64,000 nt of DNA from positions 32,923-96,922 of the forward strand of contig JBMORP010000002.1 in NCBI GenBank assembly GCA_049322655.1, written 5' to 3'. Positions 237 through 50,929 of the stretch are shown one piece after another (within the stretch, counting starts at the first letter, position 1; each line of letters begins with the position of its first letter). The position numbers and the translations under genes were made by a program. The stretch comes from Patescibacteria group bacterium. Lineage in GTDB: Bacteria > Patescibacteriota > Microgenomatia > UBA1400 > PJMF01. The notes under the pieces are model-generated. The model searched no databases. It saw only the letters and a list, made by a program, of their open reading frames with translations, and was not told where the DNA came from.

Positions 237-590
237 ATGACAAACCAAGATTTAACTATTAAACAACTAGTTCAAGACTATCAAGAAGTAGGCAATTTTT
301 TAAATACTCGTTGGCCTCTAAAAGACAAAAACCAACAAATTTTTGCCAGAACAATGAAGATTGTGGAAGAGCTGGGTGAACTGGCTGATGAAATTTTAAC
401 CAGTATGAACTTAGCTCGTGATACTAAAATTGCTAATTTTAGCCGCGAAAACATGGAAGATGAATTTGCCGATGTATTAGCTTCCTTAATTTTACTAGCT
501 AATGAATTAGATATTGACGTTGAACAAGTAATGAAAAAGAAACTCAAATTTACTAGAGATAGATTTGGGATGAATGAAGAAAAAGCTTAA
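237..590 (+). CDS. MazG-like nucleoside triphosphate pyrophosphohydrolase (small all-alpha MazG domain)
   Basis: 117 aa. Motif 'EELGELADEIL' followed by a second helical pair 'DVLASLILLANELDIDVE', typical of the MazG/NTP-PPase fold. Confidence 0.55.
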   Translation: MTNQDLTIKQLVQDYQEVGNFLNTRWPLKDKNQQIFARTMKIVEELGELADEILTSMNLARDTKIANFSRENMEDEFADVLASLILLANELDIDVEQVMKKKLKFTRDRFGMNEEKA

Positions 591-2410
591 ACTAACTTCA
601 TATATTGATATAGTTCACCGTCACTAAATCCTTTTTTACGATAATAACCACGAGTCCCAATCGCTGAAATAACTGCTAGTTTTTTGTAACCATTATTTTT
701 AGCTCTTCGCCTGGCCTCATTGATTAACTTGGTGCCAAAACCAAAATGTTGGGCAGCAATTTTACTTTTGCTACCAATTTTTAAAGCCCGACCGTAAACA
801 TGAATTTCACGGATGATCGCACTTTCACTAAGTTCAGCAATAAAGTTTTCTTTGGGAAAACTCAATCTTAAGAAAGCTAATAATTTCTCACCATCTGCTG
901 TATCTACCACATATTGTAAAAATTCTTCACCACTAATAGCTGTTTGATATTTTTCGATTTTGAGTTTGGCTGCCAATGGATCAAAATTCTGGCCTCTAAT
1001 TTCTCTAGCTCTAATATCATGAGAAATAATTCCTTTTTTTTCAATAGTTTGTTCAGCAATCTGTCTAAAATTAGTTTTTTTATTACCAACAACAATATCT
1101 TGTGATGGAATATCTCTGATAATTCTAGTTAATCGACAATAGGGTGGAGTAGTTTGCAAAACATGTTCTAAAACTGCTAATAGCTCTTGGTGAGAATAGG
1201 GTTTCCATAACCCTTGTTTGTAATAACTCATCAGTTCCGCACTATCAATTAACGAACAAGGATAAACTTTCAATTCATCAGGATTGAAAGCTGGACTTTT
1301 GAATAGTTGATCAAAATCTTGTTGATCTTGATCATGGCCAGAACCATAAAGATTAGCCATCCAGTGAGCATGAATCTTAAATCCAGCTTGTCTAAGTAAC
1401 TTGAAAGCTCGTTTACTAGCAGCGACATCATGACCACGATGGTTTTTCTCCAAAACATCATCATTGGTACTTTGCACCCCAATCTGGGTTTTAGTACAAC
1501 CCAATTTTCTAATCCTAATTACTTCTTGTTCAGAAATATTGTCTGGCCTAGTCTCAACCACTAAACCAACATTTCTAATTTCTGCTGTTTCATTTTTTTG
1601 ATGCTCAACAAACAATTCATCCCAAGTCGCTGCTTGAAGTTTATCTAAACCAAGTTTTCTTTCTGGAGCCACATAAACTTCAGAAACAGTTTGGTTATAT
1701 TTTTTGGTTAAATTACCACTATTAAATTGAACCGCAGCGAACCTGTCTTTATTAGTTTTTGGATCATCACTTAAGACTAGATAACTATTTTGTTCTAATT
1801 GTTGCTGAATTTTTTTGTATTCTTGTCTAATTTTTTCCCGATCATCACGATGGCCAAAATCATTCAAAGCGCGAAAACATTCTTTAATAAACCAAATTTG
1901 ATATGACTCTGGATAGTAGGACCATGTCCCACCCAAAATAATTAATTCTGCTTTATCTACAGAGTGGCCCATCGACCACAAGGCATCCAACCGATTATAA
2001 GTTTGTAAATAAGGATCAAAGTAGTTTCGTTCTGCCCGCTGAGCTCCTGGTTCGTCACTTAAATAACTTTTAGGCATTCTAATATCGCTAGGACAAAAAA
2101 TACATTTGCCAGGACAAGGAAATGGTTTGGTCAAAACTGTAATTGGGGCAACACCAGAAAGAGTCCTTACTGGTTTCATCATGATTTTTCTGACAATTTG
2201 TTGATCAAAAGCAGCTAAACCATGTTGACCAGCTAAACCACGATAAGCTTCTATTAGATGAGTCTTTGACAGTATAGAGCCATTTTTCAATGGATATTTT
2301 TTAGTAAGTTGGGCCAATTTTTTACTACTCAAAACCGATAGCCGCTCAATCTCTTTCAATACAGCTACCACTTGGTCCAGATGATCGGTATAATCAAAAC
2401 GTTTTTTCAT
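587..2410 (-). CDS. elp3: Elp3-family radical SAM/GNAT tRNA uridine(34) modification enzyme (elongator protein 3 homolog)
   Basis: 607 aa. Radical-SAM cysteine motif 'CPGKCIFCP' and a C-terminal GNAT acetyltransferase region ('HFGFGTKLINEARRRAKNNGYKKLAVISAIGTRGYYRKKGF'). Length and domain order match Elp3. Confidence 0.8.
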   Translation of the reverse strand: MKKRFDYTDHLDQVVAVLKEIERLSVLSSKKLAQLTKKYPLKNGSILSKTHLIEAYRGLAGQHGLAAFDQQIVRKIMMKPVRTLSGVAPITVLTKPFPCPGKCIFCPSDIRMPKSYLSDEPGAQRAERNYFDPYLQTYNRLDALWSMGHSVDKAELIILGGTWSYYPESYQIWFIKECFRALNDFGHRDDREKIRQEYKKIQQQLEQNSYLVLSDDPKTNKDRFAAVQFNSGNLTKKYNQTVSEVYVAPERKLGLDKLQAATWDELFVEHQKNETAEIRNVGLVVETRPDNISEQEVIRIRKLGCTKTQIGVQSTNDDVLEKNHRGHDVAASKRAFKLLRQAGFKIHAHWMANLYGSGHDQDQQDFDQLFKSPAFNPDELKVYPCSLIDSAELMSYYKQGLWKPYSHQELLAVLEHVLQTTPPYCRLTRIIRDIPSQDIVVGNKKTNFRQIAEQTIEKKGIISHDIRAREIRGQNFDPLAAKLKIEKYQTAISGEEFLQYVVDTADGEKLLAFLRLSFPKENFIAELSESAIIREIHVYGRALKIGSKSKIAAQHFGFGTKLINEARRRAKNNGYKKLAVISAIGTRGYYRKKGFSDGELYQYMKLV

Positions 2411-2429
2411 CAGAGAAAGTATTATACCA

Positions 2430-3191
2430 ATGAAACAAGCAACTATTACTCAGCTTAATAAACTAAATAAGCAATTCTATAGAGTTACTGCCGAAGAATT
2501 CAGCAAAACTAGAAGTTTTTATTGGCAAGGTTGGAAAGAATTACTAGAACCGCTCAAGGCAATTGGTAAAAATCATCCTCAATTAAAAGTTTTGGATCTC
2601 GGCTGTGGTAATGGCAGATTTGGTGAATTTTTGTATAAAGAAAAAATTCATAAAAATTTTATTTACCACGGAGCCGACAACAGCCAAGAACTTTTAGAAT
2701 TTGCGCAAAAAAGATTAGCAGCTTGTAAATTTGAAAAAGAGCTATTTAATTTAGATGTCATCGATGCCCTAACAAAAGATAACTTAGATGAATTAATTCC
2801 GCAAAAAAAATACCAAGTCATTACCCTGTTTGGCGTCTTACATCATATCCCATCATTTAAATTAAGGAAAAAACTCATTAATACTATTGCTGATCATCTC
2901 ACCAGTGATGGTGTTTTTGTTTTTACAGCCTGGAGATTTTTAAATGAAAAGAGATTTGAAAAAAAACAAATTCATCCAACTTTGGCAAAAATTGATCCTG
3001 ATGAATTAGAAGAAAATGACTTTATTCTTGACTGGCAGAGAGGAGTGACTGCTTATCGTTATTGTCATTACACTAATGATGAAGAGATTAAAAAATTAAT
3101 TGCTGAAACCACCTTAGAGCTAGAAAAAGAATATACCGCTGACGGCAAATCAGGAAATCTTAATTTTTACCAAATTCTAAGAAAACCTTGA
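2430..3191 (+). CDS. Trm9/ALKBH8-like class I SAM-dependent methyltransferase (candidate cm5U34 methyl esterase)
   Basis: SAM motif 'VLDLGCGNGRFG'. 'EFSKTRSFYWQGW' resembles the Trm9/ALKBH8 signature 'HFSSTRHTPWP'. C-terminal 'YRYCHYTNDEEI' resembles the ALKBH8 methyltransferase-domain 'HRYYHVFREGEL'. Divergent from elp3. Confidence 0.55.
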   Translation: MKQATITQLNKLNKQFYRVTAEEFSKTRSFYWQGWKELLEPLKAIGKNHPQLKVLDLGCGNGRFGEFLYKEKIHKNFIYHGADNSQELLEFAQKRLAACKFEKELFNLDVIDALTKDNLDELIPQKKYQVITLFGVLHHIPSFKLRKKLINTIADHLTSDGVFVFTAWRFLNEKRFEKKQIHPTLAKIDPDELEENDFILDWQRGVTAYRYCHYTNDEEIKKLIAETTLELEKEYTADGKSGNLNFYQILRKP

Positions 3192-3232
3192 GAAAATTAA
3201 CATCTCAGAGTAGAATTACCACATTCTGCTAT

Positions 3233-3303
3233 TGCCCGATCGTCTAATGGCAGGACAGAGGCCTTTGAAGCCTTCAATCTAGGTTCGAATCCTAGTCGGG
3301 CAT
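3233..3303 (+). tRNA. tRNA-Gln (anticodon TTG)
   Basis: Cloverleaf read by hand. Acceptor TGCCCGA/TCGGGCA, anticodon stem GAGGC/GCCTT with loop CTTTGAA, T-arm CTAGG-TTCGAAT-CCTAG. Confidence 0.75.
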
Positions 3304-3316
3304 CAATATTAAGAAA

Positions 3317-3338
3317 ACATCCAACTGGATGTTTTTTT
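3317..3338 (+). terminator. rho-independent terminator hairpin after tRNA-Gln
   Basis: acatcca-ac-tggatgt followed by a T7 run. Confidence 0.6.
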
Positions 3339-3635
3339 AATATTATGTCCAAAAACTAGATTCAACAATTGTTCGACCGCCAAGTCTACGAAGTAGACCT
3401 GGGTAATGTATGCGAAGCGAGTAAAACGAGCGAAGTCGTAAATCCTAGTCGGGCAGCAAATTATCCTATAATTTGACATTGTCTATTAAAGGTGTTAAAC
3501 TGCTTTTTCATTGATTGTTCTTTAATGCAATCAATCAGGTTAAGCTTGCAATTGGCTTTAAGAAGAATTTTTTTCCCTTAATTACATTTGTTTCTTGTCT
3601 TTAACCTAATAAATAGTTAAAGAAAGAAATATATT

Positions 3636-5145: not shown

Positions 5146-6837
5146 TTATTTTTTTCTAAAAAACATTTTTTCTAACTCTTGTTTGGAGATTTTTATTTTC
5201 AGAGGTCTGCCGTGAGGACAAGTATAGAGGGTATTTTTTTGAATAATTTTTTTAACTAGTTGTTGTCGCTCCACAGGTGATAAGTAGTCACCCGCTTTGA
5301 TTGCACTTCGACAAGCCAAAAAACTCAAGGCTCGATTGGTTAATAAATCAGGTTTGACAATCTTGCCATAGGTAGCAAGATCAACCAAAAAATCGTTGAT
5401 CACTCGGTCTATAGTTAAACCTTCAAAAATAACCGGGATTTCTTTAATAATAATTTGTTTGTCATTAATTAAAAAAATAAAACCTAAATTTTTAAAAATA
5501 GTTTTATTTTTTACAAAAAGATAAAGATTTTCTGGATTTAAATTTATTTTTTTATTAATTTTAACTTTTTTTTCTAAAAGTAGCTTATTTTTTTTCAATT
5601 GCTCAGAAAATTCTTGGTAAAGAATCATTTCATGAGCCGCATGTTGATCTACAACCATTAACTCGCCATGAAGTTCAAAAAATAAATAAGTATTTTGAAA
5701 TTGTAGAACCGGACCCAACTCTTGTTGATTGTTATTGATTTGCCAACCTGGTTGTAAGTTTTCTTTCAGATGGTCGGTAGTCGCTCTATCTCTTAACAGA
5801 TATGTTGCAGTTACTTGTTGTGAATTCAAAACATAAGTTAAGTCTTTGGCCAATAAAAATGCTTGTAAGTGTTCAAACAACGCTGTAATTAACTCATCTT
5901 CTTTAAAGATTAAAACCTCTTCTTTCCTTGGGTGAATATTACTGTCAAAAAAATGAGCTGGTAAATTAATAAATATAATAAAAACAGGATAAGCCTTTGG
6001 TTCTAATAATGAGCCATAGGCTTCTCGAATAACTTTGGCAATCTTTCTGTGTCGCACCATTCTGCCATTAATAAATAAGTATTGTTTGCTAGGGCTTCGT
6101 AGTGATAATTGAGGTTTCCCAACTAAACCACTGATTTTTAGTTCATTAGCTAAGTCAACTTTATAAGTCAAGCTTTGGTCAACAAATTCTTGACCAAAAA
6201 CCTCACTCACTCTGTCTGCAAAACTTGGCTGGGATAAAACTTCAAATAGTTTCCTTTGGTCATGATAGACAACAAATTGGACAGTATGATTAACCAAAGC
6301 AAAATTAGTCATTTTTTTCAGAATATAAGCTAATTCTCTTTGAACTTTATTAATAAATTTTTTTCTAGCTGGTAAACCACTAAATAAACTTTCAACTACA
6401 ACTCTAGTGCCAATCGGCATCCCAAATTTTTCATCTTCAGTTATTTGGCCATTCTGGATCACCAACCTATGACCTATTTTTTCAGTTTTTATCCGGCTTT
6501 CCAAGGTAACTTTGGCTACTGCTACCATACTCGCCAAAGCTTCTCCTCTAAAACCAAAACTAGTCAAAGTCTCTAAGTCTTCTAAATTGCTGATCTTACT
6601 AGTAGTATGAGCTAGAAAACTGTTTCTTAAATCAGTAGCATTCATTCCACACCCATTGTCACGAACCTCGATTCTTTTTAACCCACCTTTGTCCAAGTAA
6701 ATCTCGATTTTAGTTGCTCCCGCATCCAAAGAGTTTTCCACTAACTCTTTAACGACTGAATCGGGTCGATCGATTACTTCTCCAGCAGCGATTTTGCTTA
6801 CCACTTCAACTGGTAGTTTTTTAATTTTAGTTACCAT
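5146..6837 (-). CDS. mutL: DNA mismatch repair protein MutL
   Basis: GHKL ATPase N-terminus 'VVKELVENSLDAGATKIEI' and 'DNGCGM'. Overlaps the mutS stop by 11 nt, so the two form an operon. Confidence 0.9.
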   Translation of the reverse strand: MVTKIKKLPVEVVSKIAAGEVIDRPDSVVKELVENSLDAGATKIEIYLDKGGLKRIEVRDNGCGMNATDLRNSFLAHTTSKISNLEDLETLTSFGFRGEALASMVAVAKVTLESRIKTEKIGHRLVIQNGQITEDEKFGMPIGTRVVVESLFSGLPARKKFINKVQRELAYILKKMTNFALVNHTVQFVVYHDQRKLFEVLSQPSFADRVSEVFGQEFVDQSLTYKVDLANELKISGLVGKPQLSLRSPSKQYLFINGRMVRHRKIAKVIREAYGSLLEPKAYPVFIIFINLPAHFFDSNIHPRKEEVLIFKEDELITALFEHLQAFLLAKDLTYVLNSQQVTATYLLRDRATTDHLKENLQPGWQINNNQQELGPVLQFQNTYLFFELHGELMVVDQHAAHEMILYQEFSEQLKKNKLLLEKKVKINKKINLNPENLYLFVKNKTIFKNLGFIFLINDKQIIIKEIPVIFEGLTIDRVINDFLVDLATYGKIVKPDLLTNRALSFLACRSAIKAGDYLSPVERQQLVKKIIQKNTLYTCPHGRPLKIKISKQELEKMFFRKK

Positions 6838-24838: not shown

Positions 24839-24863
24839 ATATTTTAAAAGTTAGCAAAACAAG

Positions 24864-24937
24864 TGCGCCAAGCAGGATTCGAACCTGCGACCTACTGCTT
24901 AGAAGGCAGTTGCTCTATCCAGCTGAGCTATTGGCGC
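24864..24937 (-). tRNA. tRNA-Arg (anticodon TCT)
   Basis: Reverse complement reads GCGCCAA…ACTGC-CTTCTAA-GCAGT…TTGGCGC-A. Confidence 0.75.
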
Positions 24938-31581: not shown

Positions 31582-33687
31582 TTATTCTATCACCACTCTG
31601 GCATCAAGAACCTTAACCCCTTCACCTTGTGGTAAAACCAACAGTGGATTGATATCTAACTCAACAATTTCAGGAAAATCAGTTACCAATTGAGCTAACC
31701 GACCAATGCTTTCAACCAACATTTCCTTATCAGCTGGAGCTTGGCCTCTGACCCCCTCAAAAAGCTTGGCTGAGCGAAGACCATCAACCATTCTCAATGC
31801 ATCATTATGAGTTAATGGTACAAAACCAAAGTTAACATCTTTTAAGACTTCAACATAGATACCACCCAAACCAACCATCACCATCGTGCCAAGTCCAGGA
31901 GCTTTGTTTACACCCAAAATTATTTCAAGACCATTAGCCGGAGCCATTTCCATTAACAACACTCCATCTAGTTTGGCTTGAGGTTTGTTTTGGGCTACTA
32001 TTTTCATCATTTCAGTAAACTTAGCTTTAACATCTTCCAGAGTAATATTGAGCATCACTCCGCCGACATCACTCTTATGCAAAATGTCTTGAGACATAAT
32101 CTTCATCGCATATTTTTTATTTTCGCCCATCTTTTTAATGGCTAGGTAAGCCTCAACCTCGTTGACTGCTTGAGCTGTTTTTAATAATGGAAAATTATAA
32201 GCTTGTAAAATCTCGATTGCCGCTGACTCAGGAAAACTATGTTGACCATTTTGCAAAGCTTGATCAAAAATCTTTCTGACAGCTGCTTGATCAACATCCT
32301 GATACTGAAGTAGAGGAGAGCTCTTGATTTTGGCTTGATCTACAAACTGACCAAAAGTGGCTAATGACTTAGCCGCTGGCTCAGGGAAAGTGTTAGTAAC
32401 AACTCCAGCTTCTTTCATTAATTTAACTCCCGGCAAAACAGTTTCTTGTCCCATAAAACTCACCACGATTGGTTTCTTGGAACTCATCTTGGTACTAACT
32501 ACGGCTTTGGCTGTCTTGGTAATTTCAGTCATTGATTGGGGAGTAAGCAATAACAAAATTGAATCAGTATTGTTATCTTTAGCAATTAATTCCAAAGTTT
32601 GTTGATAACGTTCTCCTACGGCATCACCCAAAATATCAACTGGATTGTGAGTGCTAGCAGCATGAGGTAGGATTTCCTTGAGAGCCTCGACTGTTTTTTC
32701 TTCTAATTTGGCCATGGCCAAACCACTGGCCACAATTTCATCTGTTGTCAACACCCCAGGACCACCTGCATTAGTCACTACAGTGACATTTTTCACTTCG
32801 GTTAACTCATTCTTAGAAAAAATCTGAGCATAATCAAATAATTGGCTAATGCTATTAGCTCTGATTACTCCAGCTTGCTCAAATAAAGTTTTATAGGCAA
32901 CATCTCCGCCACTAAGCGAACCAGTGTGTGAAGCAATCGCTCCTGCCCCGGCTTCAGTTCTGCCTGATTTTAAAATAATCACTGGCTTAGGGTTATCACC
33001 TGTAGATAGCTCTTTAACTGCTTTAATAAATTCTGGAGCATTTTCTAATTGTTCTACATACATTGCTACCACTTTAGTTTGTGGATCATCAGCAAAATAT
33101 TTAATTAACTTTAATTCATTAATATCAGCTTTGTTACCAATACTCATGAACTTGGAAAATCCAATGCCCAATTCTTTGGCATAATCCAACACAGCAGTGC
33201 ATAACGCACCACTTTGAGAGACAAAAGCGACATTACCTGCCTCTGGCATTAAAGCAGCAAACGAAGCATTCATTTTAATTTCTGGATTAATAATCCCCAA
33301 ACAGTTTGGCCCGACCAATGACATTTGTCTCTCACGACAAACATCAGTTAGTTGTTTTTCCAATTCAACATTACCAATTTCTTTACAACCAGCAGAAATC
33401 ACAATCGCTGCTTGTGCCCCCTGCTCATGAGCTTCTTTCACTACACTCGTCACATAAGGGGCCGGGACTGCTATGACTGCTAAATCAATTTTTTCTGGAA
33501 CATCCTTAACTGCAGCATAAACTTTTTTGCCATAGAGGCTGTCCGCTTTTGGGTTAACTGGATAAATTTTACCTTGATAACCCTGGGTAACCAAATTTTT
33601 AACAATATCATTGCCAACAGTTTTTAGTTTTCTGGAGGCACCAATGATGGCGATAGCTTTGGGATAAAAAAGAGTTTGAAATGACAT
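31582..33687 (-). CDS. acd: acetyl-CoA synthetase (ADP-forming), fused alpha/beta
   Basis: CoA-binding 'IAIIGASRK', succinyl-CoA-ligase-like 'SQSGAL', C-terminal ATP-grasp. 701 aa. Confidence 0.8.
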   Translation of the reverse strand: MSFQTLFYPKAIAIIGASRKLKTVGNDIVKNLVTQGYQGKIYPVNPKADSLYGKKVYAAVKDVPEKIDLAVIAVPAPYVTSVVKEAHEQGAQAAIVISAGCKEIGNVELEKQLTDVCRERQMSLVGPNCLGIINPEIKMNASFAALMPEAGNVAFVSQSGALCTAVLDYAKELGIGFSKFMSIGNKADINELKLIKYFADDPQTKVVAMYVEQLENAPEFIKAVKELSTGDNPKPVIILKSGRTEAGAGAIASHTGSLSGGDVAYKTLFEQAGVIRANSISQLFDYAQIFSKNELTEVKNVTVVTNAGGPGVLTTDEIVASGLAMAKLEEKTVEALKEILPHAASTHNPVDILGDAVGERYQQTLELIAKDNNTDSILLLLTPQSMTEITKTAKAVVSTKMSSKKPIVVSFMGQETVLPGVKLMKEAGVVTNTFPEPAAKSLATFGQFVDQAKIKSSPLLQYQDVDQAAVRKIFDQALQNGQHSFPESAAIEILQAYNFPLLKTAQAVNEVEAYLAIKKMGENKKYAMKIMSQDILHKSDVGGVMLNITLEDVKAKFTEMMKIVAQNKPQAKLDGVLLMEMAPANGLEIILGVNKAPGLGTMVMVGLGGIYVEVLKDVNFGFVPLTHNDALRMVDGLRSAKLFEGVRGQAPADKEMLVESIGRLAQLVTDFPEIVELDINPLLVLPQGEGVKVLDARVVIE

Positions 33688-33704
33688 AAATTCCTTTTAA
33701 TTAA

Positions 33705-34436
33705 TTATCTAATTACTACATTGGTTAAATACTGATCAAAAATCTGTTTGGCCTGTTCAACTTGTTGTTTAGTAGCAGGTTCAACTCCTTCCAGTTTATA
33801 TGGTAACCCAAGCTCTGCATATTTATACACACCCAAGGTGTGATAAGGCAAAATCTCAACTCGTTCAATAGTTTCGAAATCCTTGAAATACTGAGCCCAT
33901 TTTTCTAAATATTCTGGTTGATCTGTCCAACCAGGCACCAACACATACCGTAACCACAGTGGTTTACCAGTCTGTTCTCGGTAGGCTGCATTCTTTAAAA
34001 CATTAGTATTGGAATGACCGGTTAATTTCTGATGCCAAGTTCCATCAATATGTTTAACATCTAGCATCACTAAATCTACTAGGTTGTAAAGTTCATTGAT
34101 TTTTTGGTTGTAAATTGCCCCACAGGTATCGAGTGTAATATGAAAGCCAGCTTCTTTAACCGCGATAAAAAGTTTTATTAGTTCTTTGGCTTGAACTGTT
34201 GGCTCACCACCAGACACAGTTAAACCACCCTGCTCGCCAAAATATGGTTTTTCTTTTTCTAAAAGTTCCAGAATTTCTTTGGTAGAAACTTGTTTAGCTT
34301 GATCACTTTTAATTAACTGAGAGTCTGGATTATGACAGTAAGCACAGGCGAAAAGACAACCCTGGATAAAAACCACCAGCCTGATACCGGGACCATCATG
34401 AGTGCCAAAAGTCTCAATCGAGTGAACTGACAACAT
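33705..34436 (-). CDS. pflA: pyruvate formate-lyase activating enzyme (glycyl-radical activase)
   Basis: Radical SAM 'CLFACAYCHNPD' and 'TVSGGEP'. Confidence 0.85.
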   Translation of the reverse strand: MLSVHSIETFGTHDGPGIRLVVFIQGCLFACAYCHNPDSQLIKSDQAKQVSTKEILELLEKEKPYFGEQGGLTVSGGEPTVQAKELIKLFIAVKEAGFHITLDTCGAIYNQKINELYNLVDLVMLDVKHIDGTWHQKLTGHSNTNVLKNAAYREQTGKPLWLRYVLVPGWTDQPEYLEKWAQYFKDFETIERVEILPYHTLGVYKYAELGLPYKLEGVEPATKQQVEQAKQIFDQYLTNVVIR

Positions 34437-34452
34437 CTATTAACCCTTCACT

Positions 34453-36681
34453 TTACATTGTCTCATGGAAAGTGCGGGCAATCACTTCTTGCTGTTGAGC
34501 TTTACTCAACCTAATAAAGTTAACAGCATAACCAGAAACACGAATAGTTAATTGAGGGTGGTCTTCTGGATGTTCCATCGCATCTAGTAGGGTATCTCTA
34601 TTCAACACATTAACATTCAGGTGATGAGCATTTTTATTGAAATAACCATCCAACATACTAACCAAGTTCTGTGTTTGTTCCTCTTTAGAACTTCCTAAAG
34701 ACTTAGGCACCATTGAAAAAGTATTAGAAATTCCATCTCTGGCATCAGCATAATTAAGTTTTGCTACTGAGTTGAGAGAGGCAATTGCTCCAGAACTATC
34801 CCGACCATGCATTGGATTAGCACCTGGAGCAAAGGCTTCACCTTTTTTTCTACCATCTGGGGTAGCTCCAGTTTTCTTGCCATAAACCACATTAGAAGTA
34901 ATAGTGAGTACCGAGAGGGTCGGAGTAGCATCTCGATAAATATGGTGTTGGCTAAGTTCATGATTAAAATCATGAACTAAAGCTTGGGCCAGTTGGTCGA
35001 CTTGATCATTATCATTACCAAATTTAGGAAAGTCACCCTCAATCGTAAAACCAGTGGTTAAACCATTGTCATCACGTTCGGCTGTCACTTTGGCAAATTT
35101 AATTGCAGCTAAAGAATCAGCCGCTACACTTAAACCAGCCATCCCAAAAGCCATATTGCGTTTAATCTTGCTGTCCATAAAAGCTAACTGAGCTCGCTCA
35201 TAGTAGTACTTGTCATGCATGTAATGAATCACATTCATGGTACTGACATATTGCTCGGCAACATAACTGATGGTTTGTGCAAAACGTTTTTTGACTTCTT
35301 GATAGTTTAAAGGTCCTGCTGGTAACGGCTCAATTCCGGGTACAATCTCAATGCCAGTCAACTCATCTTTCCCTTCATTCAAAGCCAATAACAATGTTTT
35401 AGCAATATTGCAGCGAGCCCCAAAAAACTGCATTTCTTTCCCTGTTTCCATCATCGAAACACAACAAGCAATACAGTAGTCATCACAGTCACCAACTTGA
35501 CTCATCAGTTGGTCATTTTCATATTGTAGAGAAGACGTATCGATTGAAACCTGTGCAGCAAATTCTTTAAAGCCTGATGGTAATTGATCAGACCACAAAA
35601 TCGTTAAATTAGGTTCTGGAGCAGGACCTAAGTTATATAAAGTCTGTAAAAACCGAAAACTAGTTTTAGTAATTTTATGCTGACCATCTTGCCAAAGACC
35701 ACCAATCACTTCTGTCACCCAAGTAGGATCTCCAGCAAACAATTGGTTATACTCGCTCATTCTGAGATGTCTGACTAATCTAAGTTTTAGTACAAATTGA
35801 TCTACTAATTCTTGAGCTTCTTTCTCGGTCAAACTGCCATCAGTTAAGTCTTTTTCAAAATAAACATCAAAGAAATTACTAACATTACCTAAACTCATAG
35901 CAGCACCATCTTGTTCCTTAACCGCTGCTAAGTAAGCAAAATAAGTCCATTGCACCGCTTCTCTAGCATTACTTGCTGGGCGGCCAACATCAAAACCATA
36001 AGCTTGAGCCATTTCACCAATTAACTGGAGAGCTTTTATCTGTTCACTGATTTCTTCTCTTAATCTAATAAGCTCATCAGTCATTACTCCAGTAAGTTGG
36101 TTAAGATCAGTTTGTTTGGCTTCAATTAATCGATCTAGACCATACAGAGCCAAGCGACGATAGTCACCAATGATTCTGCCTCTGGCATAATTGTCTGGAA
36201 GGCCAGTAATTAGCCCAGACTTTCTTAGTTTACGCATTTCCTCTGTATAGGCATCAAACACACCATCATTATGAGTCTTTCTATATTTACTACACAGTTC
36301 AACTACTTGTTTATCAAGTTCATAGCCATTTTCTTCACAAGCTTTTTTAACTACCCGCCAGCCACCAAAAGGCTTAATGCTTCTTTTCAGCGGCTGGTCT
36401 GTCTGAAATCCAACCACTGTTTCCAAATGTTTATCAATATATCCTGGTTGATGACTAGTAATTGTAGAAATAGTTTTAGTATCAATATCCAAAACTCCAC
36501 CATTTTTTATTTCTTTAGTTAAAAGCTTTTTGGCTTTTTCCCATAATTGTTTGGTTTTCTGACTGGGGCCCACTAAAAATGAGCTGTCACCATCATAGGC
36601 AGTAATATTAGTGTAAATAAAATCACGAACATTAATTTCAGCTTGCCAACGATTCATCTTAAAGGAAGTTTTACCAGTCAT
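34453..36681 (-). CDS. pflB: pyruvate formate-lyase (glycyl radical enzyme)
   Basis: C-terminal glycyl radical motif 'RVSGYAVNF'. Active-site 'CCVS'. 742 aa. Confidence 0.9.
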
Positions 36682-36796: not shown

Positions 36797-37183
36797 CTAC
36801 CACAATTTTTGCTGAACCATAAAACAAGCCTGGCTGATGACTGTTAAACCATGTTGCTGAGCTAACTCAACTGCATCTTGAGATTCTGATCCCGGCTGCA
36901 TCCAAATTGTTTCAAGACCAAGTTCCAAACAGACTTTCACTACCTCTAGGGTTGCTTTTGGAGGGACAACTGTTATAACTAAATCTGGTTTGGGCTTGAT
37001 CTCTTTTAGAGAAACAAATAGTGGCTGACCAGCAACCACCCCACCTTTGGGGTTAACCCCAACTACATTATAATCAGCCGCTACTAAATCTTTAAAGATT
37101 TTGGCACCATATTTTTGTGGATCATGAGAAACACCCACTACCGCTATCTTAGTTTGTTTAGTCAGATTCATAGTTAAAATCAT
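36797..37183 (-). CDS. CoA-binding domain protein (YccU-like)
   Basis: 'IAVVGVSHDPQKYGAKIF', 128 aa. Confidence 0.6.
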   Translation of the reverse strand: MILTMNLTKQTKIAVVGVSHDPQKYGAKIFKDLVAADYNVVGVNPKGGVVAGQPLFVSLKEIKPKPDLVITVVPPKATLEVVKVCLELGLETIWMQPGSESQDAVELAQQHGLTVISQACFMVQQKLW

Positions 37184-40328: not shown

Positions 40329-40709
40329 ATGCTAGTAGAATTTTTCTTACAAATGCTTAGACTTTTTCTCAATACTGGAATTACTTTTTGGATTCTATCT
40401 TACTTCGTGCCAACTATCCGCTTTGCCAACTGGACCGCCTTAATCATTGCCAGCTTAGTGATGGTGTTTATCCAAAAAATAATTAAACCTATAGTTAAAT
40501 TGCTATTTTTACCAATTAATGTCGTTACTTTAGGCTTGTTTTCTATTGTCATTAATGTTGCAATGTTGTGGTTAGTAACCTATCTAGTTCCAGGCTTTGA
40601 AATTACCAATATGGTCGTGTTTGGCTTACATTTAGATCGGTTTGGTTCGATTCTTTTTGCATCTATTTTGATTGGTTTTGTTCAAGGTTTTGTAACTTTG
40701 GTTATTTAG
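40329..40709 (+). CDS. DUF360 / phage-holin-4-like small membrane protein (YvlD-like)
   Basis: 'KPIVKLLFLPINVVTLGLFSIVINVAMLWLVTYLVPGFEI' closely resembles the YvlD family core. Confidence 0.55.
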   Translation: MLVEFFLQMLRLFLNTGITFWILSYFVPTIRFANWTALIIASLVMVFIQKIIKPIVKLLFLPINVVTLGLFSIVINVAMLWLVTYLVPGFEITNMVVFGLHLDRFGSILFASILIGFVQGFVTLVI

Positions 40710-44681: not shown

Positions 44682-45779
44682 GTGAAAACTAATCATAGTA
44701 ATAAAAAAATCATCTTAGGCCTATCTGGTGGAGTAGACTCTGCAGTTAGTGCAATTTTACTTAAAGAAGCAGGTTATCAAGTAGAGACTGTCTATATAGA
44801 ATGTTGGCATGAACCTGGTTGTAGAGCTGAAGGAGACCGCAAAGATGCGCTCAAAGTAGCCTTACAGCTAAATTTACCTTTTCAAGTTCTAGATTTTAAA
44901 CAAGCTTACAAAGAAAAAGTCATGGGCTACTTTTTGAGTGAGTATCAGGCTGGTAGAACTCCCAATCCAGACGTGATGTGCAATAAAATCATTAAATTTG
45001 GCCTATTTTATGATTGGGCAACCAAACAAGGTTATGATGCCATTGCCACTGGCCATTATGCTAAAACCGACGGTAAAAACTTGCTTGTTCCAACCGATAC
45101 CACTAAAGATCAAACCTACTTCTTGTATGAAATAAAAACAGAACAGTTACCACAAATTATTTTTCCTCTGCAAGATTTAACTAAGAAAGAGGTGAGAGAA
45201 CTAGCTATTAAACACAACCTACTAGTGGCTAACAAAAAAGACTCAGTGGGTATTTGTTTTGTTGGTGATATTAATGTACCCAAGTTTCTTAAAGAGAATC
45301 TGGGAGAAAGACCAGGTAATATTGTAGATGAGCAAGGCAATGTCTTGGGCCAACATCGAGGCTTATGGTTTCATACCATCGGCCAACGCCATGGTTTTAC
45401 TTACAATAAGAAGAAATATGTTCAGCTAAATAAAAACTTAGATAAAGGTGATTTACCAGCTTTGTATGTCATTGAAAAAAAACCAAAGACTAATGAACTA
45501 GTCATTGGCCAAAAACAAGAAACCTTAAGAAATTCCTTTGAAATTACTAATTTACACTTAATTGGAGTAACTGAAACTGAACTTTTAAATAGCCAAAATT
45601 TGAGTATTAGAATCAGAAATACTGGCGAAAAAATACCTGGCTTATTAGAAAAAAAAGACGGAAATTTCAGCATAAAATTAAAACAACTAGCCAGTGGTAT
45701 AGCTAGCGGTCAATCAGCTGTTTTTTACTTGGCTACCGAAGAACAAATTATTTGTGCGGGTGGTGGAATTATCCTTTGA
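44682..45779 (+). CDS. mnmA: tRNA-specific 2-thiouridylase MnmA
   Basis: PP-loop 'GLSGGVDSAV' and 'CNKIIKFG'. Confidence 0.85.
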   Translation: MKTNHSNKKIILGLSGGVDSAVSAILLKEAGYQVETVYIECWHEPGCRAEGDRKDALKVALQLNLPFQVLDFKQAYKEKVMGYFLSEYQAGRTPNPDVMCNKIIKFGLFYDWATKQGYDAIATGHYAKTDGKNLLVPTDTTKDQTYFLYEIKTEQLPQIIFPLQDLTKKEVRELAIKHNLLVANKKDSVGICFVGDINVPKFLKENLGERPGNIVDEQGNVLGQHRGLWFHTIGQRHGFTYNKKKYVQLNKNLDKGDLPALYVIEKKPKTNELVIGQKQETLRNSFEITNLHLIGVTETELLNSQNLSIRIRNTGEKIPGLLEKKDGNFSIKLKQLASGIASGQSAVFYLATEEQIICAGGGIIL

Positions 45780-46132: not shown

Positions 46133-47667
<1,535 letters not shown>

Positions 47668-48234: not shown

Positions 48235-50802
48235 ATGAATTTAAATCGTTTTACTACTAAATCTGCTGAAGCTATTCAGGGCACCATGCAGTTAGCTGGC
48301 AAATTAAAACATCCTGCCATGCAACCTTTGCACCTTTTCTTAGTTCTAGTAGAACAACCTAATGGATTAATTCCATCTTTACTCCAAAAACTAGAACAGG
48401 ATTTGGCTGCTTTAAAATTAAAAATTAAAGATAAACTCTCAACTCTTCCTACAACTGATACAACTACTCAAGCCTATGTTTCACCAGAGCTCCAACAAGT
48501 CTTGGCTAAAGCAGAAACAGAAGCAGGCAAACTCCGAGATGAATACATTAGTACTGAACACTTATTTTTAGGTTTACTAGATAACCAAGAAATCAAACAG
48601 TTAATTGACTTAGACAAAAAAGCTGTCTTGGAAACATTGAAAAAAATTAGAGGCAACCAAAAAGTAACTGATCCAGATCCAGAAGGTAAATACCAAGCCT
48701 TAGAAAAATATACTCAAGACTTTACTGAGCTGGCCAAACAAGGAAAAATCGATCCAGTCATTGGTCGAGATGAGGAGATCCGACGTATTACCCAAATTCT
48801 TTCTAGAAGAACTAAAAACAACCCAGTGCTAGTCGGAGAACCGGGTACTGGTAAAACAGCGATTGTTGAAGGTCTAGCCAAAAAAATCGTTGACCATGAT
48901 GTACCAGATGTATTAAAAAACAAAAAAATCCTCAATCTGGATATGGGAGCGTTAATTGCTGGCGCCAAATATCGTGGTGAGTTTGAAGATCGCCTCAAAG
49001 CTGTCATTAAGGATATTGAAGCCGCTGATGGTGAAATCATTTTATTTATTGATGAACTTCATACTATTGTTGGTGCAGGCGCTCAAGAAGGCTCAACTGA
49101 TGCTGGTAACTTACTCAAACCAGCTCTTGCTCGTGGCAAACTCAGAACTATTGGGGCAACTACTTTAAAAGAATATCGAAAATACATCGAAAAAGATGCT
49201 GCTTTGGAGCGCCGTTTTCAACCAGTCATAGTGGAAGAACCTTCAGTAGATGATTCACTTTCGATTTTACGAGGTATTAAAGAAAAATATGAAACTCACC
49301 ACGGTGTCAAAATCCGTGACAACGCTTTAGTTGCTGCCGTCAAACTTTCTCATCGTTATATCGCTGATAGATTCTTACCAGATAAAGCCATTGACCTCAT
49401 GGATGAGGCTGCCTCAGCCATTAGAATCGAGATTGAAAGCAAACCAACCATCATTGATGCTTTGGAAAGAAAAATTCGCCAACTAGAAATCGAAAAAGCT
49501 GCTTTAACCAAAGAAAAAGATGATCAAAGTAAAGAGCGACTCAAAGAAATAGAAAAAGAAATTGCTGAACTAACCGAGAAACACAAGCAATTAGAACTTC
49601 ATTGGCAAGCAGAAAAAAATACTATTGATAAAATCAAAAAATCCAGCAAACAAATCGATGAACTCAAAGAACAAGCCATTCAAGCTGAGCGTAATTACGA
49701 TTTACAAAAAGTGGCAGAAATCAACTATGGCAAAATTCCAGAGTTAGAAACTGCAATAAAAACAGCTAAAGCAGAATTGAAAAAGATTCAAACTAATCAA
49801 AAAATCCTCAAAGAAGAAGTTACTCAAGAGGATATTGCCCGAGTTGTAGCCCGCTGGACCGGTATTCCAGTCGAAAAAATGCTCGCTGAAGAGGGCGATA
49901 AATTAACCAAACTCGAAGATGAAATTGCTGAGCGAGTTGTTGGTCAAAGAAAGGCCATTGTTGCCGTAGCTAATGCTATTCGTCGCAATCGAGCTGGCAT
50001 AGGTGAGGAAGGGAAACCAATCGGTTCTTTCATCTTCATGGGACCAACTGGCGTAGGTAAAACAGAGCTAGCCAAAACTTTGGCTGAAGTACTGTTTGAT
50101 GATGAAAAAATGATGATCAGAATCGATATGAGTGAATACATGGAAAAACATTCTGTGGCCAGATTAATTGGTTCACCTCCCGGTTATGTTGGCTATGAAG
50201 AGGGTGGACAATTGACTGAAGCAGTTAGACGCAGACCATACTCGGTCATTTTATTTGATGAAATAGAAAAAGCCCACCATGATGTTTTTAATACCTTGCT
50301 TCAAGTTTTAGATGATGGCAGATTAACCGATAGTAAAGGCAGAACAGTTGATTTTAAAAACACCGTGATTATTATGACCTCAAATCTGGGCAGTGAACTA
50401 ATTGCCGACTTTAAAGACGAGCCAATTAAACAAGAACAAGAAGTTCATAAATTACTTAAACAACAATTCAGACCAGAATTCTTGAATCGAATTGATGATA
50501 TTATTATTTTCCAACCACTAGCTGAAAAAGAAATCACCAACATTGTTGATCTTCAAGTTTCAGAATTGAAAAAAAGGCTTAAAGAAAATAAAAATATTGA
50601 GCTCATTGTTTCAGCTAAAGCGATTAAATATTTTGCAAGTGCTGGTTATGACTCAATCTTTGGTGCTAGACCACTGAAAAGACTAATTCAAAAAGAGCTC
50701 TTAGATCCGCTCTCTTTAGAAATTATTCAGGGACAAATTAAAGAAGGTGACAAAATAAAAGCTGAGTTTGATGGTCGAAAAATTACTTTTAAATCAAGCT
50801 AA
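48235..50802 (+). CDS. clpB: ATP-dependent chaperone ClpB
   Basis: Two AAA+ modules ('GEPGTGKTA', 'GPTGVGKTE') separated by a long coiled-coil middle domain. 855 aa. Confidence 0.9.
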
Positions 50803-50855: not shown

Positions 50856-50929
50856 GGGTGTGTAGCTCAGGTGGTTAGAGCGCTGTCCTGATAAGACAGA
50901 GGTCCCATGTTCGAGTCATGGCACACCCA
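50856..50929 (+). tRNA. tRNA-Ile (anticodon GAT)
   Basis: GGGTGTG…CTGTC-CTGATAA-GACAG…CACACCC-A. Confidence 0.75.

Follow-up and report, generated by a model that had tools for sequence, protein, structure and literature searches.

An Elp3 protein and a homolog of the tRNA methyltransferase Trm9 are encoded side by side, on opposite strands, in the 64,000-nucleotide stretch of patescibacterial DNA analyzed here (the window), and we think it likely that the two form a two-enzyme module for wobble-uridine modification, with mcm5(s2)U34 as its product and tRNA-Gln(UUG) as its principal substrate. Because the pair lies beside a gene for tRNA-Gln(UUG) and the arrangement recurs, conserved, in many species of the Patescibacteria (CPR), those members of the group that possess the pair probably use a "eukaryote/archaea-type" wobble pathway. 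In such a pathway Elp3 would carboxymethylate C5 of U34, by means of its radical-SAM [4Fe-4S] center and acetyl-CoA, to yield cm5U, whose carboxyl the Trm9-like methyltransferase would then convert to the methyl ester in a SAM-dependent reaction, yielding mcm5U34. Thiolation of the same tRNAs by MnmA would give mcm5s2U34 as the end product, and the tRNA-Gln(UUG) that is linked to the pair across Patescibacteria would be the chief recipient.

The 607-aa Elp3 ORF (587..2410, minus strand), in which the motif 'CPGKCIFCP' can be read directly, and the 253-aa methyltransferase ORF (2430..3191, plus strand), which bears EFSKTRSFYWQGW (aa 23–35), YRYCHYTNDEEI (aa 209–220) and 'LDLGCGNG', diverge from start codons 19 bp apart on direct reading of the sequence (spacer 2411..2429), so that any promoters must overlap the adjoining coding sequence. 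Spacers in related loci are similar, at about 20–90 bp. The divergent pair and its motifs had been singled out in a preliminary description of this DNA, and all of the sequence features given there are present. On its other side, Elp3 meets a convergent gene for a MazG-like NTP pyrophosphohydrolase (237..590, plus strand; PF12643, PF03819), which overlaps the Elp3 3′ end by 4 nt and is a recurrent neighbor, found beside Elp3 or not far from it in some 20 Patescibacteria-like loci.

By its sequence, ORF 587–2410 belongs to the Elp3 family, as had been proposed from its radical-SAM plus GNAT architecture. It scores 464.7 bits against TIGR01211 (cutoff 350) over model positions 50–517 of 522, and a phmmer search of the PDB places it closer to the archaeal MinElp3 (6iad, 5.1e-94) than to the bacterial DmcElp3 (5l7j, 4.4e-83). 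The Fe–S triad C99-x3-C103-x2-C106 ('CPGKCIFC') shows no variation among 40 homologs and is retained in 48 copies taken from the loci. The Pfam GNAT match is sub-threshold (17.6 vs. 23.6), and the acetyl-CoA motif Q554-H555-F-G557-F-G559 is invariant in the same 40 homologs and aligns with 'QHMGYG' of MinElp3. When an AlphaFold2 model (pLDDT 83.9) was compared with the PDB using Foldseek, the 11 best matches were without exception Elp3 proteins (E 4.7e-37 to 1.2e-30, TM-target 0.82–0.90), with HemN (4.4e-6), the first match of another kind, trailing by over 24 orders of magnitude. An NCBI protein with 100% identity carries the name 'elongator complex protein 3 [Patescibacteria group bacterium]'. 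The window protein is a bacterial Elp3 of the 'long' form; it has two helical additions, an N-terminal extension (aa 1–77) and a clade-specific insertion of about 80 aa (aa ~187–273). Formation of cm5U34 by this protein is predicted; such synthesis has been demonstrated for archaeal MinElp3 and eukaryotic Elongator only.

The assignment of the methyltransferase required more sensitive comparisons. Pfam and NCBIfam return generic methyltransferase models only, and every curated family, including UbiE/UbiG/MenG, scores far under its cutoff (UbiG TIGR01983, 37.4 vs. 102.95; UbiE NF001244, 24 vs. 216; TIGR01934, 19.3 vs. 158), which disposes of the menaquinone-type identity against which the preliminary description had weighed its Trm9/ALKBH8-like reading. 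With a single sequence, phmmer against the PDB puts ToxA/XrdM (2.5e-4) slightly ahead of Trm9 (1.2e-3), plain HMM searches give Trm9 a modest margin over generic methyltransferases, and fold searches, with a highly confident AlphaFold2 model (pLDDT 96), place METTL6 and generic methyltransferases higher than Trm9, which they do not single out. Trm9 reaches the top rank in the PDB only with a profile of the family (A1), which finds Trm9 (5cm2_Z) first of 62 sequences at an E value of 5.7e-8, with the next at 2e-6. Aligned by hhalign with 20 named fungal Trm9 sequences, the same profile matches over 200 columns, nearly full length (Prob 99.4, E 9.5e-22), and the match takes in the segments specific to Trm9 at the N terminus (Y..A..FS.xR...W) and at the C terminus (RY.H...E ... 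N-aromatic). Conversely, a Trm9 HMM run over 3,009 ORFs from the window and the related loci recovered all 83 family copies and, with lower scores, five other ORFs. The KO-based automatic annotation of JGI, which is independent, gives over 10 family members the name 'tRNA (uracil-5-)-methyltransferase TRM9'. Judged by these profile comparisons, the methyltransferase is homologous to Trm9, and it is predicted to be a tRNA cm5U34 carboxyl-O-methyltransferase that produces mcm5U.

A homolog need not share its relative's substrate. The enzyme could belong to the Trm9-related part of the class-I superfamily and have a different target, be it some other position in tRNA or rRNA, a protein, or the carboxylate of a small molecule, standing beside Elp3 through shared regulation only. 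The generic Pfam matches are compatible with this, as is the predominance of METTL6, which makes m3C in tRNA, and of small-molecule methyltransferases among the structural neighbors; we nevertheless regard it as unlikely. Ten residues of yeast ScTrm9 were compared: the eight at which mutation removes activity or greatly reduces it, together with H115 and the unmutated Y18 (PMC4678810). Seven of the eight are R29, D72, H116, W145, W168, R241 and N271; the eighth is Tyr243 of the R-Y-Y-H motif, whose Y243A mutant retains about 10% of the activity and resists zymocin (PMC4678810). Nine of the ten are conserved in the family and invariant in 53 members (Y18→Y17, R29→R28, D72→D83, H115→H138, H116→H139, W145→W168, W168→W202, R241→R210, N271→N245). 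Among them are all the residues, R29, H116, R241, N271 and W145, by which Trm9 is proposed to hold the carboxylate and the uracil ring of cm5U; their invariance argues against a different substrate. The two motifs to which the preliminary description had drawn attention, EFSKTRSFYWQGW and YRYCHYTNDEEI, proved to be the segments bearing the experimentally required R29 and R241. The exception is Tyr243, replaced by Cys212 in the methyltransferase, a cysteine that 90% or more of the family members share ('RYCH'); the substitution could mean altered substrate recognition.

The same substitution bears on a second possibility, in which the pair does modify U34 and the end product is something other than mcm5(s2)U: ncm5U or another derivative, or a CPR-specific wobble nucleoside made by a methyltransferase that prefers cm5s2U or a hydroxylated derivative. 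The family cysteine at the Tyr243 position, the 13-residue insertion after β3 and the 'WQGW' insertion would allow altered specificity, and in Haloferax and yeast lacking Trm9, cm5U is reported to be quickly diverted to other derivatives (PMC6144793; PMC3110198). Against this, the active-site set is otherwise as in Trm9, and no obvious additional tailoring enzyme is encoded beside the pair in the window. We consider such a product improbable, slightly more so than a wholly different substrate, and retain mcm5(s2)U34 as the expected product.

The gene arrangement is also conserved. Starting from 518 species-representative genomes with a methyltransferase homolog, 82 loci were examined, among them 36 Patescibacteria-like loci with enough upstream sequence to be informative. 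In 35 of these 36, Elp3 is divergent and lies less than 400 bp from the methyltransferase. The adjacency holds at methyltransferase identities down to 38–47%, while the genes flanking the pair vary between loci. That Elp3 stays in place to about 40% identity, in two phyla and despite changing flanking genes, is difficult to square with a methyltransferase of unrelated substrate. The Chloroflexota loci lend that view some support, as 25 of 34 have no Elp3 within 6 kb of the methyltransferase; six of the 34 show the divergent arrangement at less than 400 bp. The synteny also rules out chance adjacency. The idea that the pairing is an accident of one genome or an annotation artefact of spurious ORFs draws on nothing beyond a general wariness toward mechanically made ORF lists, and it is already refuted, to the point of being negligible, by the hundreds to thousands of full-length homologs of each ORF, the high-confidence structure models and the conserved synteny.

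The tRNA gene is likewise a conserved part of the patescibacterial locus. In the window, tRNA-Gln(UUG) (3233..3304, plus strand) begins 41 nt downstream of the methyltransferase gene, where the preliminary description had placed it; ARAGORN and Rfam (62.1 bits) agree on its identity. Of 44 Patescibacteria-like loci, 26 have a tRNA-Gln(UUG) in the vicinity, in nine cases on the same strand and no more than 150 nt downstream, and in 24 no farther away than 4 kb; other tRNA species occur in no more than about six scanned loci each. Its anticodon loop, CUUUGAA, is invariant, with compensatory changes in the stems. The co-linkage of a canonical Elp3/Trm9 substrate tRNA further disfavors an unrelated target for the methyltransferase, and supports the wobble-uridine module as the preferred account. 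Co-transcription of the tRNA with the methyltransferase is unsupported; a promoter-like site and a terminator-like hairpin, both of them consensus matches only, bracket the tRNA. The former (TTGAGA-17-TAGAAT, 3188..3216, plus strand; 10/12 matches in a consensus scan) overlaps the methyltransferase stop codon, 17 nt upstream of the tRNA; since the region overall contains fewer promoter-like matches than shuffled controls, it is a weak indication. The latter (3305..3344), an inverted repeat whose arms measure 19 nt and which has a T-run behind it, is situated directly 3′ of the tRNA. A second U34 tRNA within the window, tRNA-Arg(UCU) (24863..24937, minus strand; ARAGORN), is of a class modified by Elongator/Trm9 in yeast, and we take it to be a further candidate substrate.

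An enzyme for the predicted thiolation step is also encoded in the window. MnmA, the tRNA 2-thiouridine(34) synthase, is encoded at 44682..45779 (plus strand), as had been noted before, with 368.2 bits against NF001138 (cutoff 284) and 344.9 against TIGR00420 (cutoff 236.95); its gene is unlinked to the pair. No mnmE or mnmG was found among the 52 ORFs of the 64-kb window, and the signature motifs of MnmE/MnmG (GGGHAG; G.PN.GKS; C-terminal CIGK) occur neither in the window nor in the 10 kb upstream of it; together these cover about 74 kb of a genome in which this contig alone spans at least 272 kb. As for Trm112, the small window ORFs have no Pfam or NCBIfam match, and a loose motif finds no match in the 965 kb of window and loci. 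The methyltransferase may function without this activator.

One might extend these observations into a broader, and decidedly tentative, hypothesis: that in much of the Patescibacteria and part of the Chloroflexota, mcm5(s2)U34 replaces MnmEG-derived (c)mnm5(s2)U34 in split codon boxes, made by a long-form stand-alone Elp3 and a Trm112-independent Trm9 ortholog that are genetically hard-wired to tRNA-Gln(UUG), the route being either ancestral to the CPR + Chloroflexota lineage or acquired by an ancient archaea-to-bacteria transfer. Textbooks and reviews draw a domain boundary for the C5 chemistry of wobble uridine, with MnmEG in Bacteria and Elp3/Trm9 in Eukarya and some Archaea. In 2017, bacterial homologs of Trm112-partner methyltransferases were described as undetected (PMC5372719), and in 2020 bacterial Elp3 was described as confined to Dehalococcoides, with no evidence of xcm5U in bacteria (PMC7663514). 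The present loci contain a Trm9 homolog, retained beside Elp3 in Patescibacteria and in some Chloroflexota genomes, that would be a bacterial addition to this known pathway. Our literature search, whose coverage was incomplete, returned no paper tying Elp3 or Trm9 to Patescibacteria/CPR and none on bacterial Trm9; an earlier description may exist elsewhere. The locus makes testable the bacterial synthesis of mcm5(s2)U, the function of Trm9 without Trm112, which bears on why the eukaryotic enzyme needs this partner, and the spread of the Elp3 pathway between domains. For structural work it supplies small variants of Elp3 and Trm9 that may be monomeric and soluble, and its conserved linkage to tRNA-Gln(UUG) is an unusual case of a modification module adjoining the gene of its own candidate substrate.

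The methyltransferase is homologous over nearly its whole length to eukaryotic Trm9 and the ALKBH8 methyltransferase domain, which with Trm112 convert cm5U34 to mcm5U34, and its proposed place downstream of Elp3 is the same. The two share the DxGCGNG SAM motif, the acidic SAM-ribose residue (D72/D83), the HH pair, two tryptophans, the R-Y-x-H motif and the C-terminal asparagine. Yet identity is only about 21%, Tyr243 is a cysteine, and the family differs from eukaryotic Trm9 in an extra N-terminal helix (aa 1–14), a 7-residue 'GWKELLE' insertion after a conserved tryptophan, and two short helices formed by the 13-residue insertion after β3. Unlike eukaryotic Trm9, moreover, the methyltransferase is bacterial, its gene sits beside those for Elp3 and tRNA-Gln, and no Trm112 partner was detected in the window and loci. 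Among bacterial enzymes, the class-I methyltransferase CmoM likewise forms a methyl ester on the side-chain carboxyl of a wobble uridine, converting cmo5U to mcmo5U, but does so in the CmoA/CmoB pathway, on oxyacetyl-U. It is absent from the best 60 PDB sequence matches of the family profile, in which Trm9 is first. The MnmE/MnmG(/MnmC) pathway to cmnm5U/mnm5U34 has the role proposed here for the pair, since it derivatizes C5 of the wobble uridine in Gln/Lys/Glu/Arg-type tRNAs alongside thiolation by MnmA (PMC7663514, PMC5400242); its enzymes and chemistry, a GTPase and a flavoprotein using glycine and methylene-THF, are unrelated.

The archaeal Elp3 + Trm9 route resembles the patescibacterial pair in being prokaryotic and in its stand-alone Elp3. 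HvoTrm9–Trm112 of Haloferax volcanii (HVO_1032) converts cm5U to mcm5U, which has been demonstrated in this organism (PMC6144793), and in Sulfolobus the Elp3 and Trm9 genes are clustered (PMC6144793, PMC5372719). Archaeal Trm9 requires Trm112 in vivo and is reported only from Halobacteriales and Sulfolobales (PMC5372719). The closest bacterial precedent for the other partner is DmcElp3 of Dehalococcoides mccartyi (5l7j), likewise a stand-alone Elp3 with the rSAM + KAT fold, from the Chloroflexota, one of the two phyla with the methyltransferase family. However, DmcElp3 is 459 aa long, lacks the N-terminal extension and is weakly active (PMC7663514), whereas the 607-aa window protein has an N-terminal extension like that of archaeal Elp3, together with an insertion of about 80 aa that sets it apart from all solved Elp3 structures.

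The locus is organized around two divergently transcribed genes, whose start codons read from the sequence as lying 19 bp apart. The positions and sequence strings of the preliminary description hold: a 607-aa reading frame containing CPGKCIFCP occupies 587-2410 on the reverse strand, and a 253-aa methyltransferase, with EFSKTRSFYWQGW, LDLGCGNG and YRYCHYTNDEEI, occupies 2430-3191 on the forward strand. The tRNA-Gln(UUG) gene reported downstream of the methyltransferase was located at 3233-3304(+) by ARAGORN and Rfam in agreement, 41 nt from the methyltransferase stop codon, and the MnmA assigned to 44682-45779 scored 368.2 bits, well clear of the cutoff at 284. The G+C content of the window is ~36%. 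The tRNA-Gln gene is preceded by a promoter-like site (3188-3216), recognized by consensus match only, and followed by a terminator-like hairpin (3305-3344), so that its physical linkage to the methyltransferase need not mean co-transcription. The 19 nt that close the tRNA-Gln region (AATCCTAGTCGGGCATCAA, 3288-3306) recur 153 nt downstream at 3441-3459 with 18 of 19 positions identical. A tRNA 3′ end present in duplicate is a classic sign of an integrase att site or of a partly duplicated tRNA; no element would fit into the 153-nt interval today. On the other side of the pair, a MazG-like NTP pyrophosphohydrolase (237-590(+)) converges on Elp3, with a 4-nt overlap at the Elp3 3′ end. Such a gene adjoins or nears Elp3 in about 20 Patescibacteria-like loci (L002, L004, L008, L010-L014, L083, which takes in 10 kb upstream of the window, and others), and a RecQ-type helicase often lies beyond it.

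The proposed identity of the 607-aa protein as Elp3 is borne out by the curated NCBIfam ELP3 model, which it passed at 464.7 against 350. In phmmer searches, the archaeal Methanocaldococcus infernus Elp3 came first (5.1e-94), followed by eukaryotic Elp3 (~2e-83) and Dehalococcoides Elp3 (4.4e-83). Across 40 homologs there is no variation in the Fe-S cysteines (C99, C103, C106) or in the acetyl-CoA motif (Q554-H-x-G-x-G559), and both are conserved in 48 copies from related loci. Searching the PDB by Foldseek with the AlphaFold model (pLDDT 83.9) returned Elp3 as all of the top 11 matches (E 4.7e-37 to 1.2e-30, TM-target 0.82-0.90), the first non-Elp3 match being HemN at 4.4e-6. Two additions stand out: an N-terminal helical extension (aa 1-77) that DmcElp3 lacks, and a ~80-aa insertion (aa ~187-273) in the radical-SAM domain, relative to every solved Elp3. 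The insertion, which the archaeal, Dehalococcoides and eukaryotic enzymes do not have, characterizes a clade of about 600-630-aa proteins from Patescibacteria and Anaerolineae. It is predicted with moderate confidence to form five helices (AlphaFold, pLDDT about 63-98), and contains the invariant residues N220, Y238, N239, Y246, P249, E250 and G254.

Pfam and NCBIfam matches of the METHYLTRANSFERASE (253 aa) are to generic class-I methyltransferases only; none of the specific NCBIfam families reaches its cutoff, all scoring far below. UbiG and UbiE, identities named in advance as counting against Trm9, each fell far under the NCBIfam cutoff, and no such assignment emerged. When the protein alone was searched against PDB sequences, Trm9 (5cm2_Z) ranked second, with E 1.2e-3; when the query was a family profile built from 53 members, Trm9 headed the 62 matches (E 5.7e-8), with an alignment extending through the C-terminal RY.H...E motif. 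The profile check that the preliminary description had called for came out in favor of Trm9: hhalign of the family profile against an alignment of 20 authentic, named fungal Trm9 proteins gave a probability of 99.4% at E 9.5e-22, and its 200 aligned columns take in almost all of each protein (query 15-256, template 18-231). The closest named relatives of the methyltransferase belong to Candidatus Pacebacteria/Paceibacterota, and the Elp3 matches at 100% identity an NCBI protein from a "Patescibacteria group bacterium" MAG; both place the organism in the CPR. More than 10 family members carry the JGI automatic annotation "tRNA (uracil-5-)-methyltransferase TRM9", while NCBI names the same members "class I SAM-dependent methyltransferase". 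To check specificity, all 3,009 ORFs in the window and 82 loci with a length of 60 aa or more were searched with a Trm9 HMM; it recovered 83/83 family copies (18.9-57.6 bits, median 40.2) and matched only five non-family ORFs of that set, the best at 25.4 bits. This best non-family match is a 71-aa ORF at 3058-3273(+) of L060, the single Patescibacteria-like locus in which the Elp3-methyltransferase pair is split. Lying between Elp3 at 688-2475 and the methyltransferase displaced to 6001-6753, it may be what is left of a second or an ancestral copy of the methyltransferase.

The active site of Trm9 has been mapped by mutagenesis (Létoquart et al.; PMC4678810). D72A, H116A, W145A and W168A are inactive; in R29A, R241A, Y243A and N271A, activity drops by 90% or more; and H115 and Y18 make modelled contacts to U34 and the carboxylate (PMC4678810). 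The hhalign equivalents in the window protein are D83, H139, W168 and W202 for the first group, R28, R210, C212 and N245 for the second, and H138 and Y17 for the last. Nine of these ten residues are identical in the window protein and invariant over the 53 family members. The sole exception is the replacement of Tyr243 by Cys212, a cysteine that 90% or more of the family members share.

An exhaustive HMMER search for the methyltransferase family yielded 677 cluster representatives (clustered at 50% identity) at E <= 1e-30, and screening a single genome for each GTDB species turned up 518 genomes that encode a relative. Synteny was evaluated in the best 80 loci plus two from metagenomes, with tblastn used to find Elp3 and ARAGORN to find tRNAs. 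Of the 44 Patescibacteria-like loci, 36 were informative, their upstream sequence reaching 2.2 kb or more; in 35 of the 36, Elp3 is divergent and less than 400 bp away, and in the other one it is 3.5 kb away. The arrangement persists to 38-47% methyltransferase identity, and the flanks of the pair vary (DEAD-box helicase, VKOR, another methyltransferase, SNase). Many of these loci (L003, L004, L010-L012, L019-L020 and others) are plainly CPR-like but bear titles such as "uncultured Pseudomonadales bacterium" or "uncultured Gammaproteobacteria bacterium". The titles of these MAGs look like taxonomic mislabels, and were treated as such, because L003 has a title of this kind at 97% identity to the window, and the window's own Elp3 was deposited under Patescibacteria. 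Chloroflexota carriers of the family comprise Anaerolineae, Phototrophicaceae and Aggregatilineales; there, Elp3 is adjacent in 6/34 informative loci and within 6 kb in 9/34.

Unexpectedly, tRNA-Gln(UUG) accompanies the pair in 26/44 Patescibacteria-like loci. In nine it is no more than 150 nt downstream and on the same strand; it is within 1.5 kb in 14 and within 4 kb in 24. By our own estimate, a single-copy gene would fall in a 12-kb window of a ~1 Mb genome by chance about 1% of the time, and any other tRNA species occurs in no more than ~6 of the loci scanned by ARAGORN. Since the tRNA is sometimes on the opposite strand, the linkage has outlived rearrangements. The CUUUGAA anticodon loop is invariant among the linked genes, with stem variation occurring through compensatory changes. 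The Chloroflexota loci are devoid of tRNA-Gln(UUG) (0/37).

In known systems, Elp3 converts SAM to a 5′-deoxyadenosyl radical, which takes a hydrogen from the acetyl group of acetyl-CoA; the resulting radical adds to C5 of U34, giving cm5U (PMC6367351, PMC7663514). Trm9 then transfers the SAM methyl to the cm5U carboxylate, giving mcm5U, with H116 and R29/R241 placing the carboxylate, N271 and H115 reading the uracil, and W145 stacking on it (PMC4678810). The same chemistry is proposed for the window pair because the carboxylate- and uracil-handling residues of Trm9 are retained: Elp3 would make cm5U34, the Trm9-like methyltransferase would esterify it to mcm5U34, and MnmA would add s2 on tRNA-Gln(UUG), and probably also on tRNA-Lys(UUU) and tRNA-Glu(UUC). 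Homology, active-site conservation and synteny support the reading of the pair as a putative Elp3-Trm9 system, and we consider the mechanism reasonably likely to operate as proposed. An mcm5(s2)U product and replacement of MnmEG are inferred. A weak screen of the window and 965 kb of related loci found no ORF resembling Trm112, the activator partner of known Trm9 enzymes. The methyltransferase has a family-specific 13-residue insertion directly after strand β3 (helices 110-115 and 119-122), presumably where Trm112 zips onto Trm9 in the Trm9-Trm112 structure. It is tempting to speculate that this insertion stands in for Trm112.

Elsewhere in the window, a complete bacterial 16S rRNA gene (46134-47667(+); 1435 bits, model positions 1-1533) has no large insertion and is not accompanied by 23S, 5S or a spacer tRNA; an 855-aa ORF (48235-50802) and then tRNA-Ile(GAU) at 50856 follow, and the rRNA genes appear unlinked. 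Acetyl-CoA metabolism is represented by a cluster at 31582-36681(-), whose products of 742, 243 and 701 aa look like pyruvate formate-lyase, the radical-SAM activase of that enzyme and an ADP-forming acetyl-CoA synthetase, judging by their sizes and N-termini alone; a profiled CoA-binding protein is encoded at 36797-37183. A 126-aa ORF (40329-40709(+)) matching Phage_holin_4_2 (PF04020, 79.4 bits) belongs to a gene run beside a RimK-like ligase and a QEGLA-motif protein.

The Elp3/Trm9 pathway has been described for eukaryotes and, from 2018 on, for Haloferax (PMC6144793), and clustering of the Elp3 and Trm9 genes has been reported for Sulfolobus (PMC6144793, PMC5372719). For bacteria, the reviews say the opposite of what the pair seen here indicates: in 2017, bacterial homologs of Trm112-partner methyltransferases were described as undetected (PMC5372719), and in 2020, bacterial Elp3 as confined to Dehalococcoides and xcm5U as without evidence (PMC7663514). 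A 2026 paper merely mentions Elp3 in "numerous bacteria", and no link of Elp3 or Trm9 with CPR, Patescibacteria or Anaerolineae was found in the searchable full-text literature. Both genes are already labelled by pipelines (Elp3 by PGAP, TRM9 by JGI/KO), and the novelty thus lies in recognizing and documenting a conserved bacterial Elp3-Trm9-tRNA-Gln module. It is neither a new protein fold nor new chemistry, but a bacterial case of a known pathway. CPR is sister to Chloroflexota in some rooted bacterial phylogenies; a pair common to both, together with the Elp3 of Dehalococcoides, would fit inheritance from a shared ancestor.
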